A stretch of 64,000 bases of DNA. Source: Amoebophrya sp. A120 (Eukaryota > Protista > Dinoflagellata). The stretch is from NCBI GenBank assembly GCA_905178155.1, contig CAJINV010000004.1, positions 3,753,320 through 3,817,319 on the forward strand, written 5' to 3'. Both the position numbers and the translations under genes were made by a program. The notes below the pieces were generated by a model that was not told the origin of the DNA, searched no databases, and was given only the letters and a program-made list of their open reading frames with translations. Positions 3,824 through 57,500 of this stretch are shown one piece after another (the stretch's first letter is position 1; every line of letters starts with the position of its first letter).

Positions 3824-4595
3824 GGAAAATATAGGGATAAAAAGTAAATTAAAAACAGCTTGTTTTTGTCATGTAGGGTAGTTAGGAACAATGGAATGAT
3901 CGATTCTTGTACACCTGGGATTGTTCCTGGTCCTGCGTAGTTAACTACATTGAATAAATACCACCTGTATACCACTCAATTGGAAAAATCACAATCACAA
4001 TAGCATTCTTGCTTCTATTTTTATGTACAATTCTTTTGGTGGCAGTTCCGATGGTCTGCCTTATGGTGTAATGGGAGAAGTCGATTATTGATATCGTTAT
4101 GCTTGTATGCACAACGCTATTTGCAGCTTTCGTCGAAAATGCGTTTTTTTTCTTGTGCTACGACATGAATGTATTCACAAAGAAACCCACAGGAAATCTG
4201 TACAATTCTTTTGGAAAGGCAATGGAAAAGGAAGATAAGAAAACCGAAAGCGACTTTTATCATGTCTTTGCCGTGTTACTATGCTTACAACCACACACTC
4301 GTCTGTGTCCAAATCTTTTCGCAAAAAAAACGAGAGTCGTTGGCTTTGAGTTAAGTACAAGGAAATGGCGATTGACGAGAGTTTGAGTTAAGTACAGCGA
4401 CAAGCTGAAAATGTGGTTGTCATTCGACTTCTCGCAGTGTGCTTGCACTTGCTTTTAAAGATGAATACTACGTGTGTCGACCTTATATTAAGCTTTGACC
4501 CGTGCAAGAACTTTGTCGTCGAAGTAAGAGGGCGCATCAGAGAGCAAACGCAAGAATTCAGTCACTTTCACTTGGTCAGATACGGGTGTAAAAAG

Positions 4596-7500
4596 ATGTC
4601 CTCCGCAACTTCAACTTCCCGAATTCCCTCCCAGTCCTCTGCCAGCACGACGACAGCGTCGTCGCCGGCCACTACGGATGTTGAATCCTCCTCTGCACAG
4701 GAACAACAGCAAGAACCCGGCTCTCGAGGACATCCTTCACAACGGCCCGAGCGGGTGATGACCAATAACAAGCAACGTTCTACCAGTAAAAAATCGGCAA
4801 ATAAACAACTTTCCTCAACGCCGCAGAATAAGCAGCGGTTGGTGTTGAAAAATCCGGACGGCTCGCTTGTCGCTGGGTTTTCCCTATCAAATGCAAAAAT
4901 GTCTGGGGCTGGGAGGAATTAAACTTCTCATGCGCATTTCGCAACACACACAAATCTCTCATGCATAGGCAGCAAAAGTTGCCCATTCTCTGTCACGAAA
5001 ATGGGACATTTCTCATGCGGATTAGGCATTGCGGAACCTTATCGATGCCTGTGATGCTAAGGCCTCCATGCCACACCTTCTGAGGCATGCAAAAACAGCA
5101 TGAGAAAAATCTGCACTCATTCAGACCCAGACATATTTGCAATGCATATTCCCAATCCTACGTGGAGCCGAAGCCCCCCGCTTCGCCCGCAAACCACGTG
5201 CCCGCGTGGCTGGACTATCAAATGCAAATATGTCTGGGTCTGGAAGGTTGCAACTTGTGATGCTGTTTCTGCGTTCTAAAAAAATCTGTATTGCGTGACC
5301 AGCAAGAGGAGTCCAGTTTGTGCTACATGAAGACGGCGTCTCTCATGCGGAATAAGCATCAGGAAGCACCGTAAAAGTCTGTGATGCTAGGTTATGCATT
5401 ACAGGCGTCATGGGTCATCTAAAATTTAGGACAAGAGCAGACAGTAAGAATATCAAAACAAGATGAAAAATGCACGCATACACGCGCACTGCTTAACTGT
5501 GTGAAAGGTGTCGGCCCTGTTTGACCTGCTGCGGCAGGCAGGTGAATTCGTAGAACTGCTTCACATGTTAAGTAACGCACACCGGCCTCCTAGTTTTAGT
5601 GATGAATTTATATGCGCCAACATTAGTGAAAAATTTATATGCGCAGCGGCTTACTGCGCAGCGTCGGTTCGTGCACGTGTGTCGCTCTTCGTTCGTTGTC
5701 TCCAGGAGCTTGATCGTAAATTCGTGCGCTCCTCCTGCTTTATAAAATTCGATCTTCCCATCTGCCCCCGTTTTCCCACGTAGATTTAGATCTCTACCCT
5801 TTTATATCTTCTGTCGTTTAGTTTTGTTGTTTTGCCTGACTTGCCTTCTTAGCGCTAGCCCGCGCATCCCGCGTTCTTGCAGGGGCAGCTGTCTTTTTTT
5901 CCGCCTTGCCAGCGGATTTTGTCGCGGGGAAGAAAGCACTCTGGGTTCAACGGTCCCCGCCCCCCCTCGTCGTGGGTTCAACGGCCCCCATCCCTAAAGA
6001 GACCACTTAGAAATAATTCTACAGTAGATTGCAAATTTTACAGCGGTCGCCCGTTTTGCATCGGCCGAGGCTGCACACGCGTCCGGAGTATTTTTCACTG
6101 ACGTCCCTCGGCTTGGGTCATATGATGTTCTTCGTCAGGTCGCGCAGCCTCTATTAATGCGATTCGGGTCGGCTGCGCCCTATGGCTAGTATCTGTGATC
6201 CAGCTCGGCCATATATTTCGGGTTTCGACCCGAATAGCGCGCACTAGGCGCAACTATCTCTTTATACAGTGGTCTCTCCCTATCTTTACTATCTTTCAGT
6301 GCAGCGGCTTACTGCACTTATCGCCCTACGGAGACTGTGATCTGACCTCCCTCTACCTCCCCTGGTGGACGTCTGCCGCGGCTTACGGCTCTGGACGTTA
6401 ACTAGGATCGAGTGCGTTGTGCGGGTTTAGGGTTTTGAATATTTAATTTTGTATCTCCCACTGCTGCATGCACCCTGCTGCAGAACTTGTGATGCAAAAC
6501 AACCTCCGGGTTGTTCCCGCGCTTCAGGAGTAGTTCTGTTGCGTGCGGGCAGCAGAAGATGAGTAATGCTGTTGGTTTAGGGGGTTGAAAATGTTTGTGC
6601 ATGTGTAATGCAAAAGATGAAAAAGATTCGCGCGTGGGAGCGCATTTTTAAGCACAACGGGCGGGTGCCGTTCCCGCCGTCACACAATCACATACAATAC
6701 AATACAATACAACAGAGCGGGGCCCAATCAAAAAAAAAAAATTTGCATGACAAGTCTTGAATTCTTCCAGACCCAGACATTTTTGCATTCCATATGGACG
6801 GGGGCGTTGCAAATGAGTTGGAGTACATCTACACGAAGCACGAGCAGCTCTTTCTCGGGTTGCTGATCGTGCAGTTCCTGATCGAGATCGTGTTTACGGG
6901 ACTGTAAGCGATATTTTCCTTTCTTGCGTTTTAGCTTTGTTCTGATACAGTTAAGTACAGAATTTGGGTTAGGATCTGGTGAGTACAGAATTTGTGTTGG
7001 TGGTAATAAATCCGCCGGCATCGGCATCCGATATTTCTCATGCGTGATGCTGAAATGCGTATGCAACTGCAAGGAAAAAAATAATTTGTGATGCGAAAAT
7101 CTCATACATACAATCCTTACTACATCACCAGGTACATCTACTATGGCAATGAATTGATCGAGGAGATGACGATCATTTATTCGCACTTGATCGGGAAGAA
7201 CAACGTAGTCCGGCTCTACACCCTGACCGTCATCGTCGAACTGGTCTACATATGAAATGCAAATATGTCTGGGTCTGCATGAGTACAAGGTTTGTCATGC
7301 ATATTTTCCATGAGTCATGATGTCTGTGATGCATGCCTAGCATCACGATCACAGATTCTGCGGGAGCTTTCTGATGCTCCTACCGCATGAGAAATGCCCT
7401 CTTTGCGTAGCAACAACTGGACTTCTTTTCCTGTTCATGCAAGACAGATCTCATGTTGAATCCAAAGGCAGCATCACAAGTTGCACCCTTCCAGACCCAG

Positions 7501-7813
7501 TCATTTTTACATATGATACTACAGCTCGTTTTACTACCTCCTCGGCGGCATGGCGTTGTGGAAGGGGAAAGCGGTTCTGTTCGAGCGGTTCGCGTCCTTC
7601 GCGCTGTTCGGCTGCCTGCAGTCGGTGTTCCTCGCGTTCGCAAACAAATTCAACCTGATCTGCTTCCTCTTCCGGTTACTGGCCTACATCTACGCGCGGT
7701 TTCTCCGCAACTACCTGCGGTCGGTGGCGATCTTGCAGGAGCCGTCGAGAAGAGCTGGTATCGAGGAGGACAGTCCGGAGCGGGGGAGGGTGGCCGGCGG
7801 GGGGATACCGTGA
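4596..7813 (+). CDS. Multi-pass membrane protein with a Ser/Thr-rich N-terminus; exons 4596-4884, 5154-5215, 6800-6903, 7130-7250, 7524-7813
   Basis: Removing three introners and GT-AG intron 6904-7129 gives one frame with several hydrophobic segments (LFLGLLIVQFLIEIVFTGLYIYYG; LYTLTVIVELVYSSFYYLLGGMALW; FNLICFLFRLLAYIY). Confidence 0.75.
4885..5148. mobile_element. Family A introner (264 bp), DR ttccc
   Basis: tatcaaatgcaaaaatgtctgggg ... cagacccagacatatttgcaatgcata; frame restored (GFS|QSYVEP). Confidence 0.88.
5216..6794. mobile_element. Family A introner expanded to 1579 bp by a nested insertion, DR tggac
   Basis: Left TIR at 5216, right TIR ending ...tttgcattccata at 6794, tggac on both sides; frame restored (WLD|GGVANE). 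Confidence 0.88.
5428..6737 (+). mobile_element. Retrotransposed-type insertion with poly(A) end and 7-bp TSD aaaattt
   Basis: aaaattt at 5421-5427 and 6738-6744; (CAATA)n run near 6691-6712 followed by an A-run. Removing the insert plus one TSD leaves 262 bp, the family A size. Confidence 0.75.
7251..7518. mobile_element. Family A introner (268 bp, opposite internal orientation), DR ctaca
   Basis: tatgaaatgcaaatatgtctgggtctg ... ccagacccagtcatttttacatatgata; frame restored (LVY|SSFYY). Confidence 0.9.
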
Positions 7814-10100
7814 GCTGCAGGAGAGGAAATTGCAGGACAGTAGCAGAACTTGATTATTGCTTCTTGGTCGTGGCCGCGGGTGGATGGACGTGGGCTGCCG
7901 GAAGATGAAGTTTCATGGAGCTTCTAGAGCTTTTAGCAGAGCTTCAAGTTTTTACTGGCGAACAAATGCCGCGTGGTCGGGGTGCGGACGCTGTGTTCCG
8001 GAACAGCCAGACAAGTGCATCAGTCACCTCTCTTCTGATCAAGAAGAGGTGCGACTGCGGTCGGCGGGTAGGGAGGTAGAATCTCCAGGGACCACACTCA
8101 CGACCGGGACTGCAGCGACGCACGGGATTACAAAAACAGCGAGAGTGCTGCCTGGTGCTCAGCCTGACAGGCGACTTTATTACAGCGACAGTAGGTTGAA
8201 TTCTCTGGTGGACTTCGCCGCTGGTGATGCGTGTGAAACATGACAGGCGCTGCACGATGAATATTTTTTTTCCGAGAATGAAGCGAGAAACAGAAAGAAG
8301 ATAGACGAACTCTGAGTTTCAGTTTTCCAATGCACGAAGTTTGTTTCAAATGTTGAATTGTTGTTGAACAAGTATCGATAGAGGCTTCGTACCACGCAAG
8401 CACTTCGTGGACTTGCGAAAGACAGAGCGATTCGTCGGTGATCTTTTTTCACATGCCTGTTCGTCTTGGAAAGATCCCTTGTCGTTTGGAAGGTGTTTGC
8501 AAAATTACGGCGAAGAAGATGATTGTAGCGGGAACGGAAAATCTCAATGAGCGTTTCCGCAGACGAAATGATGAGCCAAGAGCGAAATGCAGTCTTCTGT
8601 TGGTGGAACGTATTGAGAGACTCTTTTCCTCCGGGATAGCGAGAATGTGATGGTGGAAAAGCTGCTCGCCGAGAGACGACTTAGGTTGATTATCCACGTC
8701 TGCAGCGACTTCTATGGTTTTTCTTATTTTTTTCGGAAGCCGGACGATAAGGATAAGAATGCAATTTCTTCGGGCGACAACTCGATAGGTAGGCGGCCTA
8801 ATCGATCGCCCGATCTGCGCCCCAATTTGGAGGCTTTGGCAGAGATGTGCTTGCCCCGCTGATTTGATGGCTCCCCCCATCGCCAAAAAAAGCTGGGAGC
8901 ACGCGGGCGCAGTCGGAAAACGCATACACCGGCGACACCCCGCAAGCGTGCAAGCCCAGCGCGCTGGTTTGTCGTTGTTCCCGGTGAACAGGCCGCGCGA
9001 TAGGTGTGCGCGGCCCGCCCGGCTCTTGGAAGCCATAGCGCGGCGAGATTGACACCCGGTCGCGGCGGCCGGACGTTTGACGGACCGACCCGCTGGCGCG
9101 CTGGTGGGGCCGCCGGCCCGACTCGCGCCCGCGGCCGGCGCTGCGTTGCGCCGGCCGCTAGTTGCCTGGCGCAGCGCTTTGCGCCTGTCCTCGGCCCGCG
9201 CGCGGGCGCGCTCGCCTATCCTTGGACAGCGCGCGCAGGTGGCGCACACAATGCAAGCAGTTTGCCAGGGCCGGGCGGGCGCACTCTCTCTCTTGGGCCG
9301 GCCGGCGCCGGGGTGTTATCTGGCTCGCGCTGCCCCATCGGTCGCACAGCAGCTGCGCGCCCCGGTTGACGCCGGCGGGTTTAGTCCTCGATGAAAAGAA
9401 ACGCTCCCCGCTTTAGAGATGCGCGCCTGTCTGTGTCCTTTCCAGGTGGGAATCAATTTCCGAAAGAAAGGCCGGCGCGTCCGCAATTTTGTGTTTGAGA
9501 TGCCTGATGTTCGTCTTGCTGTGTGAGTTCGTTGGCAGGGGAAGCTATGTGTGCAGGACCGTGCGCCGAGCCCGAGGGGCCGTAGACATACAGAAACAGA
9601 GTAGTTGAGCTGCATGTCCAGGAGTCGTTGAGAGTATGAACGTGGTAGAGCCAGCTCAAAGGAGCTTGTTATCCGCTCTTTCTATCTGTCTGAACTTTTC
9701 TTGTCGTGTCACGGGCGCGGCTCGCAGTGTCTACCTTTGTCGGAGGCGGAGTGGCGTTGCAAAAGTTGCCTCTACAACTTCAACATCATCTCAGAGGATT
9801 TGCATTGATTCGGTGTTTATTGTTATCTTCGAAAACTTTGAGAGTGAGAGAGGCTAGTTTCAGTTGCAGTAATCAGGATTCGCTGACCTTTGCCGTTTTC
9901 GTCTTCCGCGCTTGAGTTCTGTTATTACCGGAACGCGCCGAATCACCTCCAGCTCCGCCACGACGTGGACAATCACCACACTCACATTTATCGTGTGGCT
10001 TTTCGGTTGGGGGCTGTGTCGGGAGCGGGGCAGAGCAGTTCGAGTGCTGAATCCGGAGCGCGCGCGAAATGCCCGAGGAGTATTGGCGCCCGCGAATCGC

Positions 10101-10368
10101 TATCCAGTGCAAACTTGTCTGGGTCTGGAAAGATGGAACTTGTCATGCTACCTCTGCGGGCTACATAAAATCTGTATTGCGTGCTGAACGCGCTAGAAGT
10201 CCAGTTTCGGCAACGTGGAGAGGGCGTTTCTCATGCAGTATGAGCATCAGAAAGCTCATCTCGCAGAATCTGTATTGCTATGGCATGCATCGCAGGCACC
10301 CTGGGTCCCAGAACATATGCATGACAAACTTGGCACTTTTCCAGACCCAGACACATTTGCATTCGATA
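10101..10368. mobile_element. Family A element without its own matching DR
   Basis: tatccagtgcaaacttgtctgggtctggaa ... ttccagacccagacacatttgcattcgata; flanks atcgc and agagt differ. Confidence 0.85.
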
Positions 10369-10442: not shown

Positions 10443-10725
10443 TATCAAGTGCAAACGTTCCTGGTTCTGGAAGCAGAGCAAGACTTGCGTCGACGTTGTC
10501 CTGTGCGTGGGTTCTACAAGATCTGTCTTGCATGTGCAGCAGCATGCGTCCAACCCTTGGTGCGCGAAGATGGTGTTTGTATTGCGGGATAGGCATCAAG
10601 ACGTCCTCGAGAAATCTGCGGCGCTAGGGCGTACATCGCAGACATGGTCATGGCTCACGCAAAACCACGTCGTGCGTGACAACTTTGCCTCCTGCTTCCA
10701 GACCAAGACATATTTGCGGTTGATA
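10443..10725. mobile_element. Diverged family A element without its own matching DR
   Basis: tatcaagtgcaaacgttcctggttctggaag ... cttccagaccaagacatatttgcggttgata; flanks tgaag and atcgt differ. Confidence 0.8.
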
Positions 10726-17039: not shown

Positions 17040-20000
17040 GGGCAGAATGGTGTGCCACCGATCGGTGGTGACCCTCATGCCCCGCACAGGCTTACTTATC
17101 CGGTGTGCCGCTGATCGGCGGTGACCTGCTTCTGGCTTTCAGCGCGCGCTTTTTCGCGCAGCGCGAATTTGGCGGGGCAGAATGGTGTGCCACCGATCGG
17201 TGGTGACCCTCATGCCCCGCACAGGCTTACTTATCCGGTGTGCCGCCGATCGGCGGTGACCTGCTTCTGGCTTTCAGTGCGCGCTTTTTCGCGCAGCGCA
17301 ACTCCGGTGTGGCAGAGTGGTGTGCCACCGATCGGTGGTGACCCTCATGCCCCGCACAGGCTTACTTATCCGGTGTGCCGCCGATCGGCGGTGACCTGCT
17401 TCTGGCTTTCAGTGCGCGCTTTTTCGCGCAGCGCAACTCCGGTGTGGCAGAGTGGTGTGCCACCGATCGGTGGTGACCCTCATGCCCCGCACAGGCTTAC
17501 TTATCCGGTGTGCCGCCGATCGGCGGTGACCTGCTTCTGGCTTTCAGTGCGCGCTTTTTCGCGCAGCGCAACTCCGGTGTGGCAGAGTGGTGTGCCACCG
17601 ATCGGTGGTGACCCTCATGCCCCGCACAGGCTTACTTATCCGGTGTGCCGCCGATCGGCGGTGACCTGCTTCTGGCTTTCAGTGCGCGCTTTTTCGCGCA
17701 GCGCAACTCCGGTGTGGCAGAGTGGTGTGCCACCGATCGGTGGTGACCCTCATGCCCCGCACAGGCTTACTTATCCGGTGTGCCGCCGATCGGCGGTGAC
17801 CTGCTTCTGGCTTTCAGTGCGCGCTTTTTCGCGCAGCGCAACTCCGGTGTGGCAGAGTGGTGTGCCACCGATCGGTGGTGACCCTCATGCCCCGCACAGG
17901 CTTACTTATCCGGTGTGCCGCCGATCGGCGGTGACCTGCTTCTGGCTTTCAGTGCGCGCTTTTTCGCGCAGCGCAACTCCGGTGTGGCAGAGTGGTGTGC
18001 CACCGATCGGTGGTGACCCTCATGCCCCGCACAGGCTTACTTATCCGGTGTGCCGCCGATCGGCGGTGACCTGCTTCTGGCTTTCAGTGCGCGCTTTTTC
18101 GCGCAGCGCAACTCCGGTGTGGCAGAGTGGTGTGCCACCGATCGGTGGTGACCCTCATGCCCCGCACAGGCTTACTTATCCGGTGTGCCGCCGATCGGCG
18201 GTGACCTGCTTCTGGCTTTCAGTGCGCGCTTTTTCGCGCAGCGCAACTCCGGTGTGGCAGAGTGGTGTGCCACCGATCGGTGGTGACCCTCATGCCCCGC
18301 ACAGGCTTACTTATCCGGTGTGCCGCCGATCGGCGGTGACCTGCTTCTGGCTTTCAGTGCGCGCTTTTTCGCGCAGCGCAACTCCGGTGTGGCAGAGTGG
18401 TGTGCCACCGATCGGTGGTGACCCTCATGCCCCGCACAGGCTTACTTATCCGGTGTGCCGCCGATCGGCGGTGACCTGCTTCTGGCTTTCAGTGCGCGCT
18501 TTTTCGCGCAGCGCAACTCCGGTGTGGCAGAGTGGTGTGCCACCGATCGGTGGTGACCCTCATGCCCCGCACAGGCTTACTTATCCGGTGTGCCGCCGAT
18601 CGGCGGTGACCTGCTTCTGGCTTTCAGTGCGCGCTTTTTCGCGCAGCGCAACTCCGGTGTGGCAGAGTGGTGTGCCACCGATCGGTGGTGACCCTCATGC
18701 CCCGCACAGGCTTACTTATCCGGTGTGCCGCCGATCGGCGGTGACCTGCTTCTGGCTTTCAGTGCGCGCTTTTTCGCGCAGCGCAACTCCGGTGTGGCAG
18801 AGTGGTGTGCCACCGATCGGTGGTGACCCTCATGCCCCGCACAGGCTTACTTATCCGGTGTGCCGCCGATCGGCGGTGACCTGCTTCTGGCTTTCAGTGC
18901 GCGCTTTTTCGCGCAGCGCAACTCCGGTGTGGCAGAGTGGTGTGCCACCGATCGGTGGTGACCCTCATGCCCCGCACAGGCTTACTTATCCGGTGTGCCG
19001 CCGATCGGCGGTGACCTGCTTCTGGCTTTCAGTGCGCGCTTTTTCGCGCAGCGCAACTCCGGTGTGGCAGAGTGGTGTGCCACCGATCGGTGGTGACCCT
19101 CATGCCCCGCACAGGCTTACTTATCCGGTGTGCCGCCGATCGGCGGTGACCTGCTTCTGGCTTTCAGTGCGCGCTTTTTCGCGCAGCGCAACTCCGGTGT
19201 GGCAGAGTGGTGTGCCACCGATCGGTGGTGACCCTCATGCCCCGCACAGGCTTACTTATCCGGTGTGCCGCCGATCGGCGGTGACCTGCTTCTGGCTTTC
19301 AGTGCGCGCTTTTTCGCGCAGCGCAACTCCGGTGTGGCAGAGTGGTGTGCCACCGATCGGTGGTGACCCTCATGCCCCGCACAGGCTTACTTATCCGGTG
19401 TGCCGCCGATCGGCGGTGACCTGCTTCTGGCTTTCAGTGCGCGCTTTTTCGCGCAGCGCAACTCCGGTGTGGCAGAGTGGTGTGCCACCGATCGGTGGTG
19501 ACCCTCATGCCCCGCACAGGCTTACTTATCCGGTGTGCCGCCGATCGGCGGTGACCTGCTTCTGGCTTTCAGTGCGCGCTTTTTCGCGCAGCGCAACTCC
19601 GGTGTGGCAGAGTGGTGTGCCACCGATCGGTGGTGACCCTCATGCCCCGCACAGGCTTACTTATCCGGTGTGCCGCCGATCGGCGGTGACCTGCTTCTGG
19701 CTTTCAGTGCGCGCTTTTTCGCGCAGCGCAACTCCGGTGTGGCAGAGTGGTGTGCCACCGATCGGTGGTGACCCTCATGCCCCGCACAGGCTTACTTATC
19801 CGGTGTGCCGCCGATCGGCGGTGACCTTCTTCTGGCTTTCAGTGCGCGCTTTTTCTCGCAGCGCAAATTCAACGGGGCAGAGTGGTGTGCCACCGATCGG
19901 TGGTGACCCTCATGCCCCGCACAGGCTTACTTATCCGGTGTGCCGCCGATCGGCGGTGACCTTCTTCTGGCTTTCAGTGCGCGATTTTTCGCGCAGCGCA

Positions 20001-20050
20001 AATTTGGCGGGGCAGAGTGGTGTGCCACCGATCGGTGGCGACCCTCTTGC
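17040..20050. repeat. 135-bp tandem array, ~22 copies, with near-identical interior copies
   Basis: Identical blocks recur every 270 nt (two units), e.g. 17191 and 17461. Only the edge units diverge. Each unit has the 14-bp palindromes ccaccgatcggtgg and ccgccgatcggcgg. Confidence 0.97.
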
Positions 20051-20275
20051 CCCGCCCCGTCTTTTCGGGCGCGCCATCGCAAGTGAGTGGGTTTTGCGAC
20101 TCGGAATGGAAACACCGGAACGACGGCAGCCGGCTGATGGATCTAAGCGTTTTCAGTGCGGGTGTTGGACGCGCAGCAGCACCGTTGGGATGTTGGGTAC
20201 TTCGTTGCTTTGTGTTATTGACCTTGATTGTTGCCGTTGCGATGGTAGGGGGAATTCAATGAGAAAGACAAGGAA

Positions 20276-22444
20276 GTACCCGCAAAACAACATATCGATT
20301 GGTCAGGATTTTTACGACACATTCCTGGAGGACGAGATGTGGGGCCACCATCGTGTCCGTACACCACTACTGAGGATAAACTTGGGCCGGACGGCGCATC
20401 TTCGTCAGTTCATTGCGGTTGTTGCGGGTGCTGATTGTTTTTCTGATCACTGGCATGAATAGAGAATGATATCCTGTTTGATCTCATCGTATGAATTTAC
20501 CAACATCAAGTACGTAGTAGACCAAGAGAATATATCGTCGTGTAGAATGGACACTACTCTGACAACAAAACATCGATTCAGGATTTGAAATAGTGGAAGA
20601 AGGAGATATTGCGGTTTACCGAACCCTCTCGCCTCCACAAACAAAACGGGCAACCCAATCTCGATGCCCCGGAGGCCGAACCGTCGCGCAATGCAGCATC
20701 GCCGGTGCTTTCTGTTTTAAAGATCGAGATTTTATTCTAGTTTGCAGAAATGATATCATATCCATGACCTTGTACCACGAAGTCAACACGATCAGCATGT
20801 CCAACTAGAGCGTGAACTACCTCCAACCCAACATATCGATTCAGGATTTGTACCGCCAGTGGGGCTGACGCTAAGGACAAGAGACCCACCCGGCGCCCCT
20901 TCATTGTTGGTCCCCCCGCAATCCTGTTGAAGAAGCCGATTCGAAGACGCCAGTTGCCTCCTCTCCGAGTCGTCGGCACTACAGGCGTTTTTCGTAGACC
21001 CTTTTCTCTACGCTGGTGTGATGTGTTGCAGGCTTGGATGAGAGCGGAGACTACCTTGTCAACAAAAACTTGATACAGGATTTGTACCAGGACCAGAACG
21101 GCGAGATGTTGCCCGATGTCGAACCCGGAAACCCTTGCCGAGAAGTGCGGATGACATCATCTACCGATCGACACCGGTGCTCTTTATCGTTGTTTTTTTT
21201 TTCGGGATATGGAAAAAATTAAGATATGCATGCGAGTTGTGTAGAACCATAGAGATTAGAACGCATGCTACCTGCAAAACAACACATCTATTCAGGATTG
21301 GCACCTCCAGACGGGACAGCCAAATCGCTGCTGAACCTGATTATCACCAAAAGCGTTAAGCCACCCGGCGAGAAACATCCTCCACGGTGTCAAGCTGCAT
21401 GGCCTGCGAAATATTCGGGCCGCGGTACTTTTGGTCTATTTTCAGTACTATCGTTCTTTTTCATGCAGGAGCAGCAGCGCATGCGCAGTAGCCGACGAGA
21501 GCATGTACTACCTGCAACTCAACACATCTATTCAGGATTTGTACCAGCCAAACAAGCAGAGCCTCCCGATTTTGTCCAACAAACAGAAATAAATACGAAC
21601 CAAGAAGCCGTGCATTCCGCATCTGATTCGGCGGTACTAGCCATTTTTTTTCCATGCAGAATCTAGTTTTGACAACCTGCAACCACATGTCTCAATCTGC
21701 TGCTCCATTTAGAATCAGAGCTACCTGCCAATCAAAATATCGATTCAGGATTTGAACCTGCCGGATTCGCGGACATATCAAGAAGCTCTGCGCGATTTGT
21801 CCTGCTTTCGAACAAGATCAAGTCCGGACCAGGTCTCCGCGACGCGGGGTTTGAGAGCTGTCCAACCAAGAACGGTGTTGTTTATCTTTTTTCCAGTATT
21901 CAGCATCATGGAAGTCGTTTGTCATGGATGAAAAGCATGAAAAGTCGCATATCCCAGTGCTGCTTCGCTTAGAACGGCCACTACGTGTTGTTCGACACAT
22001 CGATTCAGGTTTTGCACCAGCGGAATCCACAGTTCACACTGCCCCCGTTGCTCCTTCTCGCTCATGATCCCTCCGGCCGGTTGGTTTGAATTCGAGGCCA
22101 TTTTCACGACCGAAAAACAGCGATACCATACAGGAGGTGCTTTTTGTTGCCTTTTGCTCGTCTATCTCTCTTGTACTTACATCATCGTTTTTTCGAGCTT
22201 GCGTGATCAATACAAACTGCTTACATGTACCCGAAAACAAATTGTCAGGGACGGCTGCTGAAACTGCCGGCGGGTCCTTGTACGGGGAAGTTAGCGAAAT
22301 GGCCGGCTTCACCGAGGTACTCTGCTTTGTTTTCTTCATGACAACATGGTGCTATCTTCGTAGTCCGATGTTTGTATCATCTCAATGTTCATGATAAGAG
22401 CAAAAACTACTGGCAAAACAAAACACCTATCCAGGATTTGTACT
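20276..22444 (+). repeat. Periodic array of a 38-bp motif (CTACCTGCAA..CAA.A.ATCGATTCAGGATTTGTACC) with ~175-240-nt divergent spacers
   Basis: Copies at ~20276, 20554, 20817, 21051, 21268, 21508, 21721, 21981 and 22407. Confidence 0.85.
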
Positions 22445-27200: not shown

Positions 27201-30200
27201 GGGCGCGACCGCCGCAAAACGAACTACAATCTCCGCCGCAGTTCAATAGGCAGCAAGGAGGGAGCAGCAGCAGCAGCAGAAATCCTCCTCCTTTGGCACA
27301 ACAGCAATCGCACAACTACATAGAAGTAGAAGAGGCGAAACAGCCCTCCCGAGGCCCACCTTTATTGACGAAGGAACAGTTCGAGAAAAGGGACGAGTTG
27401 CTGGCCAAGCACCGAGAAAGGGTGGAGCAGTCACGGAGATTGGGGACTACAGATCAACAGGGTTCAATATTTCAGAGTCAACAAGAAGAACGGATACGGA
27501 CAGCACAAGCAGGCCTACAGCAAAACCGGCCCGCCACCGGAGGATCAACCACGAGTAGATCTGGCTCTACTACTAGAAAACCACCGGTACTGTCATCAGC
27601 ATTTGAACCTCCATCGAGAAATATCAAAAATACACAGGGTCAAAAACAAAAACCACGAGCACAACGACCACGATTGTCCGAAGAAGAAAAAAAACAGCGC
27701 CTTGTAGATCTACAGCAGCGAATGCAAGCCTACAGAAAAAATATCCAAGACGCAACGAAATACCACCCGCAGAACATGTTTGGCTGCTGCAACCGGGACG
27801 ATTTGAATGACCCGGAGATGCCCCGAACCCGGGATGCACTCGCGAGAGAGGTGGAGGAGGCCGAAAAAAAGAACCTTACCGATCAGAAGAAGAAACTCTT
27901 AAATAACATCCGCGCGCAGCTCTTGACGCAGGTGCGGGAGAAGCGGTACTCGGCGCTGGATTTGCAGCGAGCGCAAGGGATGGCGATGAAGATGTTCGTG
28001 GAGAAATTGACGGCCGTTTTGAAAGCAGACCAGCATTTCAACGAACATTGGGATCGCTGGTTCTCCTGGATCTGTGAACATTTCTGGACCGAACTTCGGA
28101 GAATATCGCAGGAAACCTCCGGCACGAACTCCTTCGCGGGGCGCGGGTTTCAACCTTTCCGCACACTGGAATTGCTAGAATGGGAGCTCGCGGAGCGGAT
28201 CGGTACATAGTACTTACCTACAACGGTAGTAGATTGCATTTTGCAGCTGGCTCTATGTATGAGTGTATCAGTATGTGAATGTAAGTACCTATTTCGCGTC
28301 TGCTTTTGGTTACATATTAATTTCTACAGTCGGCGCGGTTGTTTTTTTAGCATCACAAAACTACTGCAACATTTGACTTGAACAAAATCATACAATCAGG
28401 TCTTTGTTTGAATCTGGATGTGGTTCCCGGTTCGGAAAGGGAGCGGATTTTTATGCCAGACATGGCGGAGAAATCGAAAAGACAGTGGATTGTGGTGACG
28501 AAGGGCTACACCGACCGCCAGAAAGGCCGCTGGATCAAGGTGCCCAACATTCCGAAAATTTGGCGGCACGTTTGGCACCACGCGGGAAACTTGAAACGCA
28601 TGGCGAAGCTCGTTGCTCCACCAAAAGAGAACAAGGACGACCCAAACAAGAAGAACCCCAATATTAGCCCTGGCGGCCCGGATCAACGAACAAAAACGCA
28701 AAGTACACCGGAAAGATACAAAGCGGCCAAGGCCAACGAACTTATCCACGCGTTTGACGACCCAGGACTCCGCATCCTGCAGCAGCACCGGCTTCAAAAG
28801 ACCCCACTGTTCCTCGGCATGGCCTCGCTTTCCAGTCCGTTGCAAGACTTGCTGTTGTGCGAGCGGGTATTTAGTGCGTGGGAAAAGAGAAAGATAGACT
28901 TGAGGAACTTTGAAGACCTGCAGGAAAACGTGTTTTGCCAGAAAATTTCGGATTTTTTCCTCACCTACCTGCTAAAAGTGGAAGCGGTTTACTACCAGAA
29001 ACTCACCCACTTCGCGCGGTTTAGAATCGAAAATAACGACCAGAAGATGATGACGTTGTTCGCGGAGAAGCACGACCTCGACGTGCCAGAATATTTGAAC
29101 AGCTTCGACGCGGAGAACGAGTTCCGAGTGCTGTTCAATGACGAAGACTACATCTACAAGCGGCTCTGTTCCTTCGAAAAATCCGTTTGTCTCAAGAACG
29201 GGTTGGATTTAACAATCGGGAGTTCCGTTTTGTCCCCTCACTACCACTATCAAAAGTAAAAAAAAATGTCTGGGTCTGGAAACTTGTGATGCTGGGTGGC
29301 GTCTCATGATGAGGCTACAGATGCTGGCTCAGCGTGACAAGTTTCTGAGCTCCTAGGTGTTGCCTATTCTGCATGACAAACTGCGCTTCTGCATCACAGA
29401 AAAGCGGAGCTCTTGGGTAACGTGCATGACAGATTTAAGAGTCATGTCAGACAAGCATGACAAACGTGAATTCTTCCAGACCCAGACACTTTTACAGTTG
29501 ATAACCACGTGGAGGCAGTGGAAAACTACGCGGTGCGCGCGGCGATTCTGTTTCGGATATCAAATGTAAAAATGTCTGGGTCTGGAAGATTGCCAGGTTT
29601 GTCATGCACGTTTTGCATGACTCCTGAACTGATGTCTGTGATGCATGCCCTAGCATAACAGATTTTGTGAGGGCTTCCTGATGCCTATACCGCATGACAA
29701 ATGCTCTTTCCGTGTGGCAAAACTTGGACTCTCTTTGCTGCTCATGCCATACAGATTTTTTTACAATCCAAAATCAGCATGACAAGTTGGATTCTTCCAG
29801 ACCCAGACATTTTTACAGTTGATATCGGAAGTTTCTGAATTCTTGGCTGAAACTGTTGGAGGAGTTTGTCGTGCAGAATCCGGTATCCTGTGCAGAAGTA
29901 TCGTACTCGTAGTAATCCTATTCATGCATTACAGATTTTTTTCTCAAGTTAAATCCGCATGACAAATTCCATTTCTAATGCTAAGAAAATTTGTAATGCA
30001 GTTTATACTAGTACGATGCTTTTGCACAGGATATCCGGGCAAATTACCGGGAAGAAACAAAACCAGGCTGCACCACCCGGTGGGGCTGTTTGACGCGAAG
30101 ATGTTTTTGTCGCATGAGACGCTGGAAAAGATAGCACAGCTTTTTCGAAGATTGCTCGTGTTGGAGATAAAGGGGCGTCCTGAAAAACAGGGGCTGGAAC

Positions 30201-46952: not shown

Positions 46953-47649
46953 TAAAGAGCACCAACTACTTACTGTTTTTGCGAAAAGAAGTTTTATCGG
47001 TTTAGTTTCATTTAATTCCCATTCCTCGTGCGACCTGATGCTGAAGTTGATAGAGAAGTAGATTAAGGCGATAGTAGTTCGATGTCCAGCAGACAAAGAC
47101 CTTGCGCAAGCGAGTTGTCGACGACTAGCGTCATCAGCAAAGGCAACAGAAGAAGGCCTGGAAGTGGGCTTTCAAACGTCCAATCTATCTTTCTAGTTAT
47201 CGGAACTGCAAACAAGTTTATTCCAAATCAATGGTCTGCCGCGGTACAATTTTTTTCCCCGCGGTCTTTCCTATCTAGCAACGAACAAGAAAGGCGGCTG
47301 CACCCGAGGCGGAGTCGTCGAAAGATGACTGTTGTTCTTGGCTTGGGAGTGAAGAGGGCACGAAAGAAAGCCAGGAGTTTCAATATCTACAGCTTACTGA
47401 GATCAAAGATTGAGAAACTGTACTAGAGCGGAGCGAGGAGCGACACTTAGCTTAGCGGTAACATAGCTTGTGCGCTTGTGGTGCACCAATAAAAGAAGGT
47501 CCTTTTTTATCATCTGTTACAACATGCTGCCAGCCTTATTAAATCGTGCTCGTGGTATTCCTGATTTCGGAGAAAGAACGTGAGTTGTATAATCGTATAA
47601 TCGATGTAAATGAACACCACGATCAGTCCACGATCGTTGTGAAAGAAGG

Positions 47650-48821
47650 ATGCTGAACGATGCCCCGAGGACTGGTCGGAGCGAAAGCAGCAGCAGTTTC
47701 TCTTCGTTCTCTTCGAAAAATAACGAGGTCAACTTGCGAAATCACGCACCGCCGGATGAAGTGGGGGAACAAGAGACGAGAAGAAAAAATGTCGTGCAAG
47801 ACGGTAGTAACTACAACTCTTCCTCGTCTGTCGAGTCATCGTCGTCGTCATCGTTTTCTAGACGGGAAAAGAACTCGACGCCGCCGTCTAGCGGGCCTCG
47901 TGGAAGAAGTCAGACTAGCACTAGAGGAGCGTCGCCTGCCGATATTAATGCGACTGCAACAAAATCCCTAAAAGACGACCTGGTCCGCACGAAGACGGGG
48001 AATCTGGTGAGCAAAAACGCGGTGCTGTATGGGGCCCAAAACATCGAGCTAAAGGGCACCGGGTGCTACATCGGAAGCAACGTGACGCTGCGCGGGGATC
48101 TGGCGATGCTGCGGCTGGGCGAGTATTGCTTAATACACGGGGCGGCTCCTCGTGGTGGATCCACGACAAGAAATTCTATTGAGCAGGAAGATATTTCGGC
48201 GACCAGGAAAACGAAAACCACCGCGTCGACGACGACGACGATAATTCGGCCCAGCAGGAAGTTTTTCCAGCACGTTTACGTCGCTTTGAAGATCGGGGAC
48301 TTTGTGCGGATCGGGCCGAACAGCGTCGTGCAAGCGGCGTCCATCGGGAGCTACGTCAGCGTGGGGCGGAACGTGGTGATTGGTAACAGGTTATTCTCCG
48401 GAAAGTATCACCGATACTCGTTCTTTACGAGGAGAAATTCCAGTCTGGCAATGTTGGCATGGCAAATCATCTGCTTCTTGCACCTGAATGTTCATCTGCA
48501 TGACAAATGTCAGCTGAGTTAGCCCTTGTCGATCAAACATGCATCATCACGATACTTTTCCAACCTGCATACAGAGCGGTTATCCACTCGTACTGCGTGA
48601 TAGAGGACGACACGGTCATTCCCGATAACGAGGTAATCCCGCCGTTCTCCATCGTGTCTGGCGCGCCCATGAAGCTCCGGGCCGAGCTCCGGGAGACGTT
48701 CGCAAGCGAGCTGGCGACGACGTTGAAAGAAGAGTATCAGGGGTTTTTGACGGGTATGACGACGAAGACAGCGGCGGGGGAGGAAGATGTGGATGAACTG
48801 GGCGCACGGCCGGATGGCTAG
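47650..48821 (+). CDS. DCTN5: Dynactin subunit 5 (p25); exons 47650-48389 and 48575-48821
   Basis: TKTGNLVSKNAVLYGAQNIELKG, LRGDLAMLRLGEYCLI, IGDFVRIGPNSVVQAASIGSYVSVG and TVIPDNEVIPPFSIVSGAP match the p25 left-handed beta-helix. Confidence 0.9.
48392..48571. mobile_element. Degenerate B-like introner coinciding with GT-AG intron 48390-48574
   Basis: tattctccggaaagtatc ... gatacttttccaacctgcata, flanked by caggt and cagag. Confidence 0.55.
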
Positions 48822-49399: not shown

Positions 49400-50868
49400 A
49401 TGGTCTACGCGGTTCTCATCCACGGTGTGGAAGGTCGTCTGTTTTTCAGCCTGTTTTACTCTGCCGAGGGGAATGACAGCCGCAAGAAGACGAGGCAGCA
49501 GACCATCATGCGGCGGATTTTAGCGGAGCACTTGTTTCAAAAACACACGGACAGCAACTTCGTCTCATCTTCGACTAGCAGTTCCTTCGGCGGAATGTTA
49601 AATGGCGGAGGAAGTGGCTCGTCGTCCAGCGGAACTTCCAGCTCTTCCTCCACCGCAGCTTCCAGCGCGTACAGCCCGGTTTTCGAGTTGCTCTGCGGCG
49701 GGCCGGATGGACTGGCGGTGAAGGAGGGAAACAAAAGCAGCAGCACGTTGCTGAACAAAACGACAAATTTGTTTGGGGAATGGATTATGGATTGCAAAAA
49801 TGTCTGGGTCTGGAAGATTGCCAGATGCAGATTTTCCATAACCCATGAGGTCTGGTATGTAGGACATAGCATGACAGATTCTGCGGGACCTTTCTAATGC
49901 CTCTCCTGCATGAGAAACTGCCTCTCGATTAGGTCAAAAGTGCACAACTTTTGGCAATCATGCAACACAGTTTTTTGCCTGATTCAGATTTAGCATGACA
50001 AGTTGCAATCATCCAGACCCAAACATTTTTGCATTTGATATGGATCGGAAACAAGAAGGATAATGCAATGTTGCACCACGGAGGTCCTCTTTCACTAGAC
50101 CCGGCTGCATTCAGTGCTATGCACGGAGTAGTAGATAAAAACGCAGTGGATCCAGCAAGAATTACACATGGAAACACTGCGGACCCGCATCTGCTGGGCC
50201 ACGTGCCGGGCTATCTGCAGAACAAGAGCACCAACTACTACGCTTCGAGCCTGTTCGGTGGCGGCAGTTCTTCGGCCTCCAAAACCTTCGGGAACAATGT
50301 GCAGAGTGGGTACAACAATTACACGGCCTCGCGCAACAAGAAGAACGCTGCCAACGCGAACAACGTCACAGAGGGCGTGGTGCGGATGGGAGGCAGCGTT
50401 TCCGGGATTTTTGAGCAGAGCAAGATGCTGTTCTGGAAGCAGGTGAACGGTATCTTCTTCACGATTTTGTGTGAACCACTGGAAAACACGCTACTCGCGA
50501 CGAACTTCCTGGAACTGCTGATCACAGAATTGCACCGCCACTTCGAAATAGAGCTGAAGCTGGGCGGGAGCGGGAATTATGACAAGAAAAATAAGAATTA
50601 CACCGACAGAAATAATGCCATGACTGCCGCAGGAGATCACCATCCGCTGCTGGAGGACCATCTTCATGGGGGAGGGAATGACCACGGCCGGGTGGCCAGT
50701 AATGGCGGAAACAATTACGGGAGCACACTCGCGGATCGGATTCTAGACAAACCAGACGAAGTTCTGATGATTCTGCACTACATGCTCCCCGGAGGACAGC
50801 TGCAATTCATAACCTACAATCTGTACGCGTTTTTAAGGACAAACATAGCGGACTCACTGAGCAACTGA
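49400..50868 (+). CDS. AP5S1: AP-5 complex subunit sigma; exons 49400-49785 and 50046-50868
   Basis: MVYAVLIH, ENTLLATNFL and ILHYMLPGGQLQFI match AP5S1 motifs; long low-complexity inserts. Confidence 0.85.
49786..50040. mobile_element. Family A introner (255 bp), DR tggat
   Basis: A-type TIRs; frame restored (GEW|IGNKK) in AP5S1. Confidence 0.92.
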
Positions 50869-51687: not shown

Positions 51688-53958
51688 ATGGTAAAAAAGA
51701 GCATGAAACGAAAGCAGGCCTCTTCTGCAGGAGACCACAGCGCGGGTGGCAACAAAAATGCGAAAGCATCATCATCCTCCGCCGCCAGCACTGCCGCGGA
51801 ACCAGCACAGCAAATGGAGCATCTTTTGTCCGGTCCGGCGCTGAAACAGGCCAAGAAAATTTCCATCGCTAAAATTAACGGTCCGGACGAGGGAAAGTTG
51901 CTCCTCCCGCGAAACGCGGAGGATAAGAAGCAGGGCGAGCGGGTGGTGGTCGTGCTGGAAAAGTGTTTTTTGGAGCTAGTGCAGATCCGGAAGGGGACGT
52001 ACGAATTGCTCAATTCCGACGACCACAAGACCTTACTGATGAAAAACGAAAAGCGCAGGAACGACCTGGCGGAAGCACGCCCGGACATTACGCACCAGTG
52101 TTTGATGACGCTTCTGGATTCGCCGCTGAATAAAAAAGGTAGACGTTATTTTGTCCGTGCAAGACAGATTTACGTTTGCCACCTGAGCCAGCATGTTGAC
52201 AACATACTCCATTTTTTATATTTTTTCTTGCAAAATAGAACAACTTGATGTAATGCTGCTCGCATTGGTGCGATATATAGCATTAGCATTGCACCAACCA
52301 CCATGAAAACCTTAACAGGCAAGCTGCTGATCTACCTGCACACAGCGCAGAATGTGTTGATTGAAGTGCACCCGAGCCTGCGTGTCCCCCGAACGTTCAA
52401 GCGATTTTGCGGGCTCATGGTGGAGCTGTTGCAGAAAAACAAAATCAGAGCCGCGCAAACAAACGAGATCCTGATGAAGGTGCGATGAGTCCTTATTTTT
52501 TTTTTCGCAACTTCCTGATGGATCGTCCTGTTTGAAGATGCAGACGAAAGATTTGTTGATAGGGCATACACTAGTTTCTGATTGTGTTTTGCATTATTGT
52601 TGGCAATGGGAGACTTCGACAGCCATATAGATTCGGAATAGATTCCAAATAGATTTGAGATAGATGGTTTCTGTTTTCCGAAAAAGCGTCTGCAGTTCTG
52701 CAGCACGCGATCGAATGGAGAATAAAAACAGTCACCGAAGTCGCGAGCTGGGCGAAAAATGAGAACAATTCTGACCAAAATTTCCCGGGCCGATGAGAAG
52801 TGGCCACAAGGTGCCTGCCCTAGCCCGAGAAAGTGGCCAGGTGAAGGGGGTAATCTTGCAGCGCAAGCGCCGCGCTATGCTTTTAGTTGGGCCTAGACTC
52901 TCGGACCAAGTAAGAGCATACCCTGGCGCCTGGGAAAAAGATTGCTCTGGCCCGCAAAAGTTGGCACAGGCGCCACGGCATTCTTTTGCCGGGGCTGCCA
53001 GGTTTTAAGGCCAGGCACTGTCACAGAGGTGCGCATGTGATGCGAAATTCTCCTGGCCCGAGAAAGTGGCCAGATCGATGATGGAGGAGCGTGGTGTTTC
53101 TGATGCGAAAATGTTCTGGCCCGAGAAAGTGGCCAGATAAGGGGGGGGTGATCTTGAAGTACAAGCAGCACGCTGTGCTCTTACCTGGGCCTCTCGACTT
53201 TGAGGCCAGGTAAGAGCATAGCATGGCGCTTGGAAGGAAAAAAGGCCCCGTCGGCCCAAACAAAGTTGGCCCAAACACCACGGCACTCTGTTCCCTGGCC
53301 TTCCAAGTTTTGGGGCCTTCCAAGTTTTGGGGCCTATGCAGACGAAAGATTTGTTGATAGGGCATACACTATTTATTGTGTTTTGCATATTGCATTGTTG
53401 TGGTCAACTCGTTTATTATTTCCAAAAACCCCATCACAGGTTATCTCCAACCCGATTGACAAGTACCTTCCACCGGGCGGGCGCAAAGTCGGTCTTTCTG
53501 TGACGGGCAAGTCCGTGAACGTTCGCGACTACTGTAAAATGCTGGTGGACGAGCAGAGACCAAATAAACCACTAGGAGGAGCTTCTGATGCAGGAGCACG
53601 AGAAGCTGCAGCAGGAAGTAGTGCTAAAGGCTCATCACCGTCCACCTCTAGCAGCAGTTCAACAGCGCCATATGCAGGTGCGCAACAGGTAGTTGCAGCT
53701 ACGACAGCACATCAGCAGCAACCAGGTCATCTACCTTGTGCTGAGGAAGAGGAGCAGCCAACCCTGGATGTGAAACAAACCGCGTTTCTGCCGATCACGT
53801 TCGTGATTGGGGCGGTGGCCCACTGTGACCCGGCGAGCGAAAGCAATTTCGGCCTGGATTACACGACGGAAAAGATAAGTATTTCCCCGTTTGGGCTCAG
53901 TGCGAGTTGTGTATGCAGCAAGCTTTGCCACGAGTTTGAACACTTGTGGAATGTTTGA
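51688..53958 (+). CDS. EMG1: 18S rRNA pseudouridine methyltransferase EMG1/NEP1; exons 51688-52138, 52319-52479, 53440-53958
   Basis: [48 protein letters not shown] and [22 protein letters not shown]; two GT-AG introns. Confidence 0.95.
52539..53395. repeat. Intronic ~55-bp direct repeats flanking a ~740-bp insertion with internal repeats
   Basis: tgcagacgaaagatttgttgatagggcatacacta at 52539 and 53337; cccgagaaagtggccag at ~52824, ~53057 and ~53120. Confidence 0.8.
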
Positions 53959-54590: not shown

Positions 54591-57500
54591 ATGCCCTCGA
54601 CGCCAACGGACAGTTCATTCTTGCGACAGCAAGTCGTGCAAGACACACCGACTTTTGGGGTGCCAGGTCGTGGTGGCGATACAGGAAGGAAGGGCAGTAC
54701 GAGTAGCGCCACTGGTTTTCATCCAAAGAGTGGCACATCTTCTACCGCTGCGTCATTTGTCAAAACAGCAGCATCTTCGGCAAGCGACGCGGCTACAACA
54801 GGAACTACACCCGGAACAAGAAGTGCTGTCCCCTTCGCGGCCCCCGCACTTGTTCCTGCGGCCGAGACTTTTTCAAAAATGTCTGTGTCAGCCTCGTCGG
54901 CTACGGCTTCATCAGCTGCGGAAAGCAGAAGTACCATGATGAACATAGCGGCCAAAGAACCGCCCGTAGTTGCGGCCGAACCCGCGTTCGAGCGGGACAC
55001 GGATGAAACAGAAGAGATGACGGCGGACGAGGTGTGGCGAAAAGTCCTGATGCCCAACGCGGCGTCGGCACCACTAGCGTTTGCTGCGGGCTACGACCAA
55101 CGTAGAAATAATGATAGACGGTTCCTTGTTCAAATGTTTGAATTTCGCATCTATTTCTATACAGAAGCACCAAGATTTTGATGTTCCAGAAAAAGATGCT
55201 CGCATTCATTTTCGCTGTGTTTTTGTGTTGACGGTTCTTGGCCTGATAAATTTTTCCAAGAAATTGATTCCTATACAGGTCTGTTCGACGGCTGGGTCAA
55301 GCAGCCCTCGCCGTGCTGCGGTGCCGCGTCCGTTGCGGGCGCCTGGAATGCGCTGCGGAACGTGCACCGTTCGGGGGACAACTATCAAAAGGAAAAATCC
55401 CCCCACCCCATACTCAAACTAGAAATTTGTGATGCAGATTTGTGGTCACAAATCAGCTTTGTCATGCTAGAAGGGAAAAGATGCGGACTGTAGTGCTGGT
55501 TGGCGTGGGAAAGCCTTGCACCTTCAGCATGACAGGGGGCAGCTGGAAGTGGGAAACAGCATGACAAATTGCCAGCAAACGAGGCCAGAGCTGCGTCTCT
55601 TGGCCTTCTAGCATTACAAGTCGATTTGTGTACTCAAATACTCGACCCGGCTTTCACTAGGGGGAGCATTCGTACACTTTGTGCCCTCCGGGACTATGCC
55701 TCTGCTTCCGTCTAAACTGAGGGGTCCACTTATCCCTCTCGGTATTCGGTCGCAGGGAAGGGTTGCCGGGGTCTCCCTCGCATCGGTTCTCGATGTCGGG
55801 TGTGAGTTTGTGACTGCGGGGGCAGTGGTTGGCTTAGGTGTGTGGAGTACATCTGAAAAGAGGCTCCCATTCCTTCTTCCAGGTAGCGATCCTAGATCGC
55901 TGCCATGCGGAGCCACCCCCGTATTTCACCCCCAGGGGGTTGTGGACCTGGCAAAACCGATGAGTTCGGGCTGCTGACTGTTCCACCTCTTCCGAGAGCG
56001 ATCATGTTACGCCTCACGCCTCAAATACAGCATCACAAGTTTCGTTTTCGATGTGGGGAGGGGGGATTTTTCGTTTTGATAACAACGCGAAGGACTTCCG
56101 CAAGCTCTCCGATGTGCTGGCGAAGTACTGCGACGCGTTGGCGAGAGGGAGACGGAAGCGGTTGGATCGCATTCTCGACGGGTATTTGCGGTGTGTCCTG
56201 CCCTCCGGGGAGGAGATTGCGAAGATGGGGGACTACTTCTTGGCGAAAATTCAGCAGCACAACTTTCTCGGCGAGGAGTACGAGCAGCAAGAGTGGCAGC
56301 GGAGAAACATCTCGCATCTGGAGCTGCATGCGGGCGGTGGTGGGGACAACATCGCGACTTGTGCGACTGAAAAGAACTTGTCCAGTACCGCTCTCTTAGC
56401 TGCAGCGAACATCGAGTCTTCAATGGATATTGCGGTCGAGAAGATGGAGAAGTGTAGTAATAATTTTTCGGGGGCACCAACATCTAGAACCACTTCGGCA
56501 CTAGCAGTTCCAAAGATTGTGCAGAAGAACAATCCACCTGCTCTCCCGGTGGGCAAGGACATGACGGACGCCGAAAAGAAGGAGCTGCCGGTCTCGAAAT
56601 ATTTCAAGACGGAGGAGAAGTTATGAACTGCAAAAACATCGTACTAGTATAAATTGCAATACAAATTAGCTCAGCATTACAAACTTTGTAATGCGGATTT
56701 TCTTTAACAAAAAGATTTGTATTATGCATAAACGCAATTAGTACGAGTACGATACTTTTGCACAGGATAGAAGTTTCCGATGTTACTGTACCTAGAGAAA
56801 TTCATCGAGGACTACCTGTTTCAAGTTGAGCAACGCACCTGGATCGGGACCAAGAAGAGTATTTATTGCGTATGTTGTTGTTTGTCATGCAAGACACAAC
56901 ACGTGATGAGGTATATTTCTCATGCAGGACGCACAGAACAAATACGACATTTTATCAAAAAACAGAAAACAAGCCCGTCGACCCTGAGAAAACCCCTGTC
57001 GAGGGTGTTACCAAAACCGCCGCGAAAGACGCGTTGAAAGCGGTGTGTGAAGCACAAGTTGCGCTCCGCTGCACAGTGGCGACAGACGAAAAAAATTCTA
57101 GTCCAACTGCCGGGGAGAACAACATTTCGTCGTCCGAGGAAACCACTGCAGTGACGGCGTCGAGCGGCTCGAGTTCGCGCACCTCCAGTAAGGAGTCAAC
57201 CACAAATGCAGTTCCGACGCCATATTTCACGCCCTACTCGGACTTGAGTTCGGCCAGTTCGTCCGGCGAGGAGGGGGGCTTGGACCTGGGCGCCGTGCGG
57301 GTGGACCTGCTCACCGGGCATCCAGCGCTGCTGCCGAGCGGGCGGGGTTTGAATGTGGAAACGACCGCCGTGCAAAAGGACTATAACGAGATGAAGATGA
57401 GCTACCCTAGTGGTGGTGATACAACATCGCTGGCGACCACTTTTCAGAACGGGTTGGGAAATCGAACCATTTCCGCGGCGCTGGCAACCGCGAGTGCGTC

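Follow-up and report, generated by a model that had tools for sequence, protein, structure and literature searches.

A retroposon nested in an introner of Amoebophrya sp. A120 probably targets introners, and the enlarged introner is very probably still removed from host RNA

Introduction

What brings a retroposon into an intron of a coding gene, and can that intron still leave the RNA after growing six-fold? One introner in a 64,000-nt stretch of the Amoebophrya sp. A120 genome (contig CAJINV010000004.1, positions 3,753,320 to 3,817,319, forward strand; hereafter the window, in whose coordinates positions are given) raises both questions. According to the main text of Farhat et al. (2021; PMC7789003), Amoebophrya introners are repeated non-canonical introns with inverted ends and a 3–5 nt direct repeat, those of A120 carry the motif TAT plus seven bases plus AAA, and the mean A120 non-canonical intron is 240 nt long. 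A preliminary description of the locus had proposed that a target-primed retro-insertion used the introner as a safe harbour and that excision does not depend on element length. Here, we analyzed the introner, its insert, related copies of the insert, and the RNA of the host gene.

Results

The long introner is an ordinary introner enlarged by an insert

The element at 5216–6794 is a 1579-bp introner, six times the size of its empty 262-bp form. It is bounded by a perfect 5-bp direct repeat, TGGAC, and its terminal inverted repeats (TIRs) are imperfect, 38 nt long and 84% complementary, longer than the 8–20 nt exact motifs given in the main text of PMC7789003. Both outer features are thus intact, as had been stated, and the terminal stem was predicted to pair with or without the insert (P 0.85–1.0 over most of the stem). 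Inside the introner, the two AAAATTT copies (Table 1) enclose 1310 bp, just as the preliminary description had it. This insert contains (CAATA)3 at 6695–6709, and the 12-A run at 6730–6741 shares four of its As with the AAAATTT duplication. Removal of the insert and one duplication leaves the 262 bp that had been claimed, and this empty form aligned end to end with 11 of the 11 other aligned introners of the window (252–283 bp, 64–83% identity). A 7-bp A-rich duplication is weak by itself, and an automatic search picked up a chance match of 8 bp at another place in the introner; the insert boundary is fixed by the empty-site alignment together with longer copies (from runs X9 and X5 and the metagenome copies L001–L003), whose match to the window ends exactly at 5428.

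The window holds 13 introner copies of this family (family 1), in which the A120 ends motif TAT-N7-AAA is present. A perfect flanking 5-mer direct repeat was found in 9 of the 12 introners tested as well as in the 13th copy, which lies at 29248–29503; its left inverted repeat is expanded by an A-run, and its direct repeat is ACCAC. With the boundaries used, the introners at 10101–10368, 10443–10725, and 63446–63698 lack a perfect direct repeat on their flanks.

Table 1 Features of the long introner and its host gene, in window coordinates
Feature	Position	Strand	Basis or remark
Host coding exon 1, ATG at 4596	4596–4879	+	X3 record 9 covers 4490–4879, 0 differences
Host exon 2, 62 nt, directly upstream of the long introner	5149–5210	+	Inferred from size match and open frame
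Left direct repeat TGGAC of the introner	5211–5215	+	
Introner left part; TIR 5216–5253 starting TAT-N7-AAA	5216–5420	.	
Left AAAATTT target duplication (7 bp)	5421–5427	+	Cut 205 bp from the left end of the introner
Element A body, 5′-truncated, multicopy retroposon	5428–5622	+	L001–L003 similarity; X9 and X5 contigs
Element B, 1087 bp	5623–6709	+	Between CAACA copies 5618–5622 and 6710–6714; L002 and L003 lack it
Element A 3′ tail (15 nt) and poly(A)	6715–6737	+	Tail ends all three relatives, exact or with one change
Right AAAATTT target duplication	6738–6744	+	Subterminal motif GCATGACAA immediately after
Introner right part with TIR	6745–6794	.	Predicted pairing with the left end
Host exon 3, begins with the right TGGAC	6795–6903	+	X3 record 9 positions 453–561, 0 differences
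Host exon 4	7132–7245	+	X3 record 9 and in-silico joining
Further introner between host exons 4 and 5	7251–7518		
Host exon 5, stop 7811–7813	7519–7813	+	X3 record 9 and in-silico joining

Element A is very probably a retroposon

The 1310-bp insert consists of two elements, A (5428–5622 and 6715–6737) and B, which is nested inside the 3′ end of A. It had been described as one poly(A) insert with a (CAATA)n run; both tails are indeed present, but the (CAATA)n run belongs to B and not to the poly(A) element A. Within the window, no other copies of the insert were found. One metagenome scan, using a 24-base pattern from the core of A without flanks, gave three matches, all of them genuine A relatives (L001, L002, and L003, all from one assembly) that reach further 5′ than the window copy and are 98–99% identical to it over 189–195 bp. 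Contigs of X9 and X5 match the window from 5428 onward and continue differently before this position, indicating that the window copy of A is 5′-truncated exactly at the duplication edge. The inserts of L001, L002, and L003 measure 939, 787, and 838 bp and are flanked by target duplications of 18, 19, and 18 bp, respectively, compared with 7 bp in the window. All three end in the 15-nt tail of A plus poly(A), with one change in L001; an A-run of 12–18, the As of the duplication included, is present in 4/4 A copies, and the four copies have four different 5′ ends. In run X1, the summed contig depth was ~43 on unique DNA, up to ~2,200 on A, and 130–900 on B, values that are a sign of many copies only and not a copy number. 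This excess and the existence of variant contigs identify A as a multicopy family.

The 5′ extensions of L001–L003 differ by indels and share no frame. Pfam gave nothing at cut-off in 13 frames of the insert or in two frames of the longest copy, L003, and no open reading frame for a reverse transcriptase (RT) or endonuclease was found in these frames; a longer master copy could encode an RT. Of the 5′-extended copies with an RT that had been envisaged, the extended copies were recovered, up to ~840 bp, but the RT was not. No tRNA was detected in the window, and Rfam gave no match in window 4500–8000 or in A of L001–L003. A contains internal T7–T8 runs, which speak against transcription by Pol III, and the search for a Pol III head is weakened by possibly incomplete 5′ ends. 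With neither an RT to place on a tree nor a Pol III head detected, A was classed neither as Tx1 nor as SINE. The 3′ ends of A, when folded, had no structure beyond that of shuffles (z −0.9 to +0.9), and tail patterns had 0 matches in prokaryote genomes and viral contigs. The L003 copy starts with three tandem 18-bp units (2077–2140), which could be a true 5′ end.

The tail, the variable duplications, the truncation, and stutters of target sequence at the 5′ end lead us to hold with high confidence that A is a retroposon moved by target-primed reverse transcription, and the poly(A), the duplications of 7, 18, 18, and 19 bp, and the four different 5′ ends lend the earlier proposal of such an insertion the same support. 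A could instead be the 3′ end of a cellular mRNA, that is, a processed pseudogene, as its poly(A) end and the match of 5429–5470 (42 nt) to RNA reads of run X11 would allow; however, at least four dispersed copies have their own duplications and indels, no open frame is common to them, and Pfam recognized no family in two L003 frames, so that this origin is highly improbable.

The 42-nt stretch was the only one matched by ~160 raw RNA reads of X11, with three differences that are also found in one X3 contig. These differences lie 3 nt apart, and the start of the insert was considered as the last codons of an open reading frame; this candidate was rejected, L001–L003 having a 1-nt indel relative to the X11 flank and no shared frame. 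The X11 reads at this stretch come from a diverged, transcribed relative of A.

Element A is found at matching sites of two introner families

All three metagenome relatives of A lie inside introners, though the search pattern was free of flanks. L002 belongs to the introner family of the window, and the cut is at 205 from the left end in both. The window and L002 hosts are 74.9% identical, whereas their A cores are 98.9% identical; the duplications are 7 versus 19 bp, and the host exons are unrelated. The divergent hosts, near-identical A cores, and unrelated host exons indicate that the two insertions are independent. L001 and L003 share one homologous site in introners of a second family, which has TAT...ATA ends; their hosts are 78% identical, and an empty introner of this family is present in the window at 61889–62203. 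In the window, members or ends of the second family, with TAT...ATA ends and a C-rich/G-rich inner arm, were noted at 55382–55700, ~55760–56083, ~58244–58276, and 61889–62203, with boundaries set roughly.

All four cuts lie 57–75 bp from the nearer introner end, with the poly(A) toward that end, and ~6–8 nt before GCA(T/A)(G/C)(A/G)CAA (GCATSACAA-like), a motif that occurs near both ends of the two introner families. In an X5 contig that supplies a fifth flank, the A-run is followed by ATCTGCATGACAAC, which includes the motif. The motif was counted 16 times in 4,668 bp of marked introner versus four times in the remaining 59.3 kb, an enrichment that is partly circular because the motif was derived from the same insertion sites. 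A is in the sense orientation relative to its host in the window (from RNA) and in L003 (from open frames) and apparently antisense in L001.

A might be an ordinary L1-like passenger that cuts any A-run and survives in introners only because they are abundant and spliced out. The L1 consensus cut resembles T|AAAA, and two of the four cut sites (window and L002) read T|AAAA, the sample being small. Introners make up 17% of the A120 assembly according to the main text of PMC7789003. A-runs are plentiful (33 per kb outside introners, ~10 and ~20 per introner for the two families), yet two pairs of independent insertions hit the same base or site, two coincidences with a rough chance of ~1 in 200 under a model of A-runs only. 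The sites of L001 and L003, moreover, have merely two or three As but the common downstream motif. The probability of finding three of three copies in introners by chance is 0.005 at an introner share of 17% and 0.04 at 35%, and the share of A in introns is inflated by selection against exon insertions. We consider an undirected passenger of this kind unlikely.

Near-identical TIR-flanked A120 introners with retro-like ORFs, reported in the main text of Gozashti et al. (2025; PMC12130899), raise the alternative that introner and cargo moved jointly as one DNA transposon, the common site reflecting descent from one event. The hosts are 75–78% alike versus 98–99% for the A cores, however, the duplication lengths and 5′ ends differ, and two unrelated host families are involved. 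Joint movement is largely refuted for these four copies and is the explanation to which we give least credence. Tx1-like targeting is recognized by separate insertion events at one fixed position in a repeated DNA element; 4/4 copies show this pattern and form two same-site pairs, in a small sample comprising four full A copies and one flank (n 4–5). These results suggest that A likely targets introners at a subterminal motif. The safe-harbour reading comes out stronger than originally claimed, because three of three additional A copies lie at matching introner sites.

Element B and a third level of nesting

The first 22 nt of B nearly repeat A sequence that lies upstream, and (CAATA)3 forms its other end. 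When closed up across CAACA, the window A is almost a letter-for-letter match to L002 and L003. The joint 5617–6710, with five shared letters, is present in X2 and X5, and the short form of A without B was found in L002, L003, X2, X5, and X9. A joint 5616–6336 marks a shortened B at the same spot in A. In L001 (9170–8774, minus strand), a different element of ~400 bp, C, with AATCTG repeats at its end, occupies the spot of B in the 3′ end of A; B and C are unrelated (blastn gave nothing better than E 0.18).

Repeated insertion at one spot in A by microsatellite-tailed retroelements is the best reading of B and C. For the inner layer only, B could be a separate retroposon with the tail of A that was template-switched onto the body of A within a single reverse transcription, or a deletion at CAACA could have shortened an ancestral long A. 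Other B copies likewise end in the tail of A (X2 record 16, X1 record 8), and the 5-bp CAACA repeat is equally compatible with deletion and duplication. On the other hand, A is broken at one spot by the unrelated B and C and by the shortened B, short tandem repeats end both B and C, and the short form of A recurs in the five sources named above, so that we regard template switching or deletion as possible, though clearly the less favored account. Together, the locus is a three-level nest in which B lies in A and A lies in the introner, and the insertion sites suggest that introners are the target of its middle level.

Three hairpins of B (5640–5660, 6298–6318, and 6374–6392) have a common 7-nt loop, CGGCUUA, on differing stems with one paired change, and their z-scores were 0.3, −2.0, and −2.4. 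From these folding models, the hairpins may possibly act as an RNA recognition signal.

The enlarged introner is absent from host RNA

Contig 9 of run X3 (1540 nt, depth 57.9), a run whose RNA label is a guess and whose sample differs from that of the DNA runs, equals 4490–4879, 6795–6903, 7132–7245, and 7519–8000 with 0 differences. The 1915 genomic letters between 4879 and 6795 are represented in the contig by only 62 (391–452), a piece assigned to the exon at 5149–5210 by size, not by letters. The GT-AG intron 6904–7131 is also missing from this contig, while X1 contigs (4400–4911 and 6768–7276) cross exon–intron borders of the host gene, indicating that X3 contig 9 is spliced RNA. The exons joined in silico give a 287-aa open frame, consistent with the earlier remark that the host frame is open on both sides, and one direct-repeat copy is lost together with each introner. 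The cut in the long introner can be placed in six equivalent registers, and GT..AG occurs in none of them. A Pfam search with two exon-derived pieces of the host product found no family. The raw RNA runs X10 and X11 covered no host exon and are therefore uninformative on splicing.

The long allele could nevertheless be unspliced if the RNA came from cells in which the 262-bp introner is empty; alternatively, the insert could be an assembly error. No contig was shown to bridge either insert junction, the RNA and DNA samples differ, and empty-site joints occur in DNA runs. At a likeness of at least 92%, the empty-site joint was found in three contigs each of X1 and X2, which are either other members of the very large introner family, probably the case, or an empty allele of the locus. 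However, an assembly error would not yield a target duplication, a break exactly at the truncation point of A, and an insertion at the very base that was hit independently in L002; the exons of the RNA contig have 0 differences, and coverage in X1 and X2 extends to 30/30 bins of the insert, possibly through other copies. Both an unspliced allele and an assembly error are therefore very unlikely. The claim of excision despite six-fold length agrees with X3 contig 9, which is without the element, the insert not being shown in the DNA reads of that sample at the locus. Taken together, the 1.58-kb long allele is very probably excised from host RNA.

Elsewhere in the window, 22 near-perfect tandem copies of a 135-bp unit (17041–20055) lie within a 1115-codon stop-free frame (17115–20462), and Pfam matched dynactin subunit 5 (47614–48519), AP-5 sigma-1 (49999–50865), and the EMG1/NEP1 methyltransferase (53158–53955).

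Discussion

We consider it probable that A was target-primed into the introner by a LINE-type enzyme aiming at the subterminal motif, and that the resulting 1.58-kb element is spliced through its paired ends. In this process, the cut ~6–8 nt before the motif would come from a LINE-type endonuclease/RT or from a protein tether on the subterminal repeat of the introner, and the T-run at the cut would prime on the poly(A) of A. Early termination of copying would leave 5′ ends of different lengths and stutters for which the target served as template. The enlarged introner would still be removed, its paired ends and direct repeat defining the cut. B, and C in L001, would have been inserted later at one spot ~20 nt before the poly(A) of A through a second, microsatellite-tailed retro system. 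For the broader idea that a retroposon family evolved to recognize the subterminal repeat of several introner families, and that second-tier microsatellite-tailed retroelements target the first, we see the chances as evenly balanced. If this is true, the recognized repeat is perhaps a binding site of the introner mobilizer, A enters coding genes in either orientation at little cost, the introner being cut out by its ends, and some of the ‘retro-derived introners’ reported in the A120 genome are such passengers.

Amoebophrya removes introns that lack GT-AG ends, apparently without U1, and base-exact loss after six-fold growth suggests paired ends as the signal. The excised long introner contains a poly(A) tract in the sense orientation. 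If the broader idea is true, the natural length series (~260, 1070, 1150, 1280, and 1580 bp) would offer a test of end-defined splicing in a cell where U1 was not detected. Transposons that target transposons are known in animals and plants; an intron as the target would let a retroelement into coding genes without breaking them.

Among known systems, the introners described in the main text of PMC7789003 are alike in their inverted ends, direct repeat, repeated family, A120 motif, and removal without GT-AG; the present copy differs in having grown six-fold by nested retro-insertions. The word ‘nested’ does not occur in that main text, and introner-targeting elements are unmentioned in the parts of the paper covered. 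A120 TIR-flanked introners such as family 38 in the main text of PMC12130899 likewise combine DNA-type ends with a retro-related interior, but they have LTR-related ORFs and near-identical copies, whereas here independent non-coding insertions lie in divergent hosts. The pipeline of that study, as given in its main text, filtered out secondary insertions, and a system of the present kind would be missed by introner surveys that apply such a filter. Euglenid nonconventional introns, as covered in PMC11282704, are also end-paired, likely MITE-derived, and dozens to thousands of nucleotides long, but belong to another lineage with another boundary code, and the covered text describes no targeted retroposon. 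Because these introns reach thousands of nucleotides and ORF-bearing A120 introners exist (PMC12130899), length tolerance alone is not new.

Closest to A in its behavior are retroelements that target DNA transposons. In the covered parts of Kojima (2015; PMC4494074), Mariner-N4_AMi receives insertions of crocodilian SINEU and Tx1-Mar in fixed regions. As with A, a non-coding, 5′-truncated retroposon prefers fixed positions in an abundant DNA transposon; in contrast, an snRNA or tRNA head was not found in A, which occurs in an alveolate; its target is an intron that the mRNA loses, and one motif is common to two target families. Xenopus Tx1, a non-LTR element that targets the non-autonomous DNA transposon Tx1D, is similar in this respect, but Tx1 encodes its own enzyme, whereas none was found for A, and the covered parts of PMC6719617 and PMC4494074 do not call Tx1D an intron. 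Among the openly accessible papers listed by a literature search, no report of a retroposon targeting introners appeared. On this comparison, A resembles known transposon-targeting retroelements, and the new part is likely that its target is spliced out of the mRNA.
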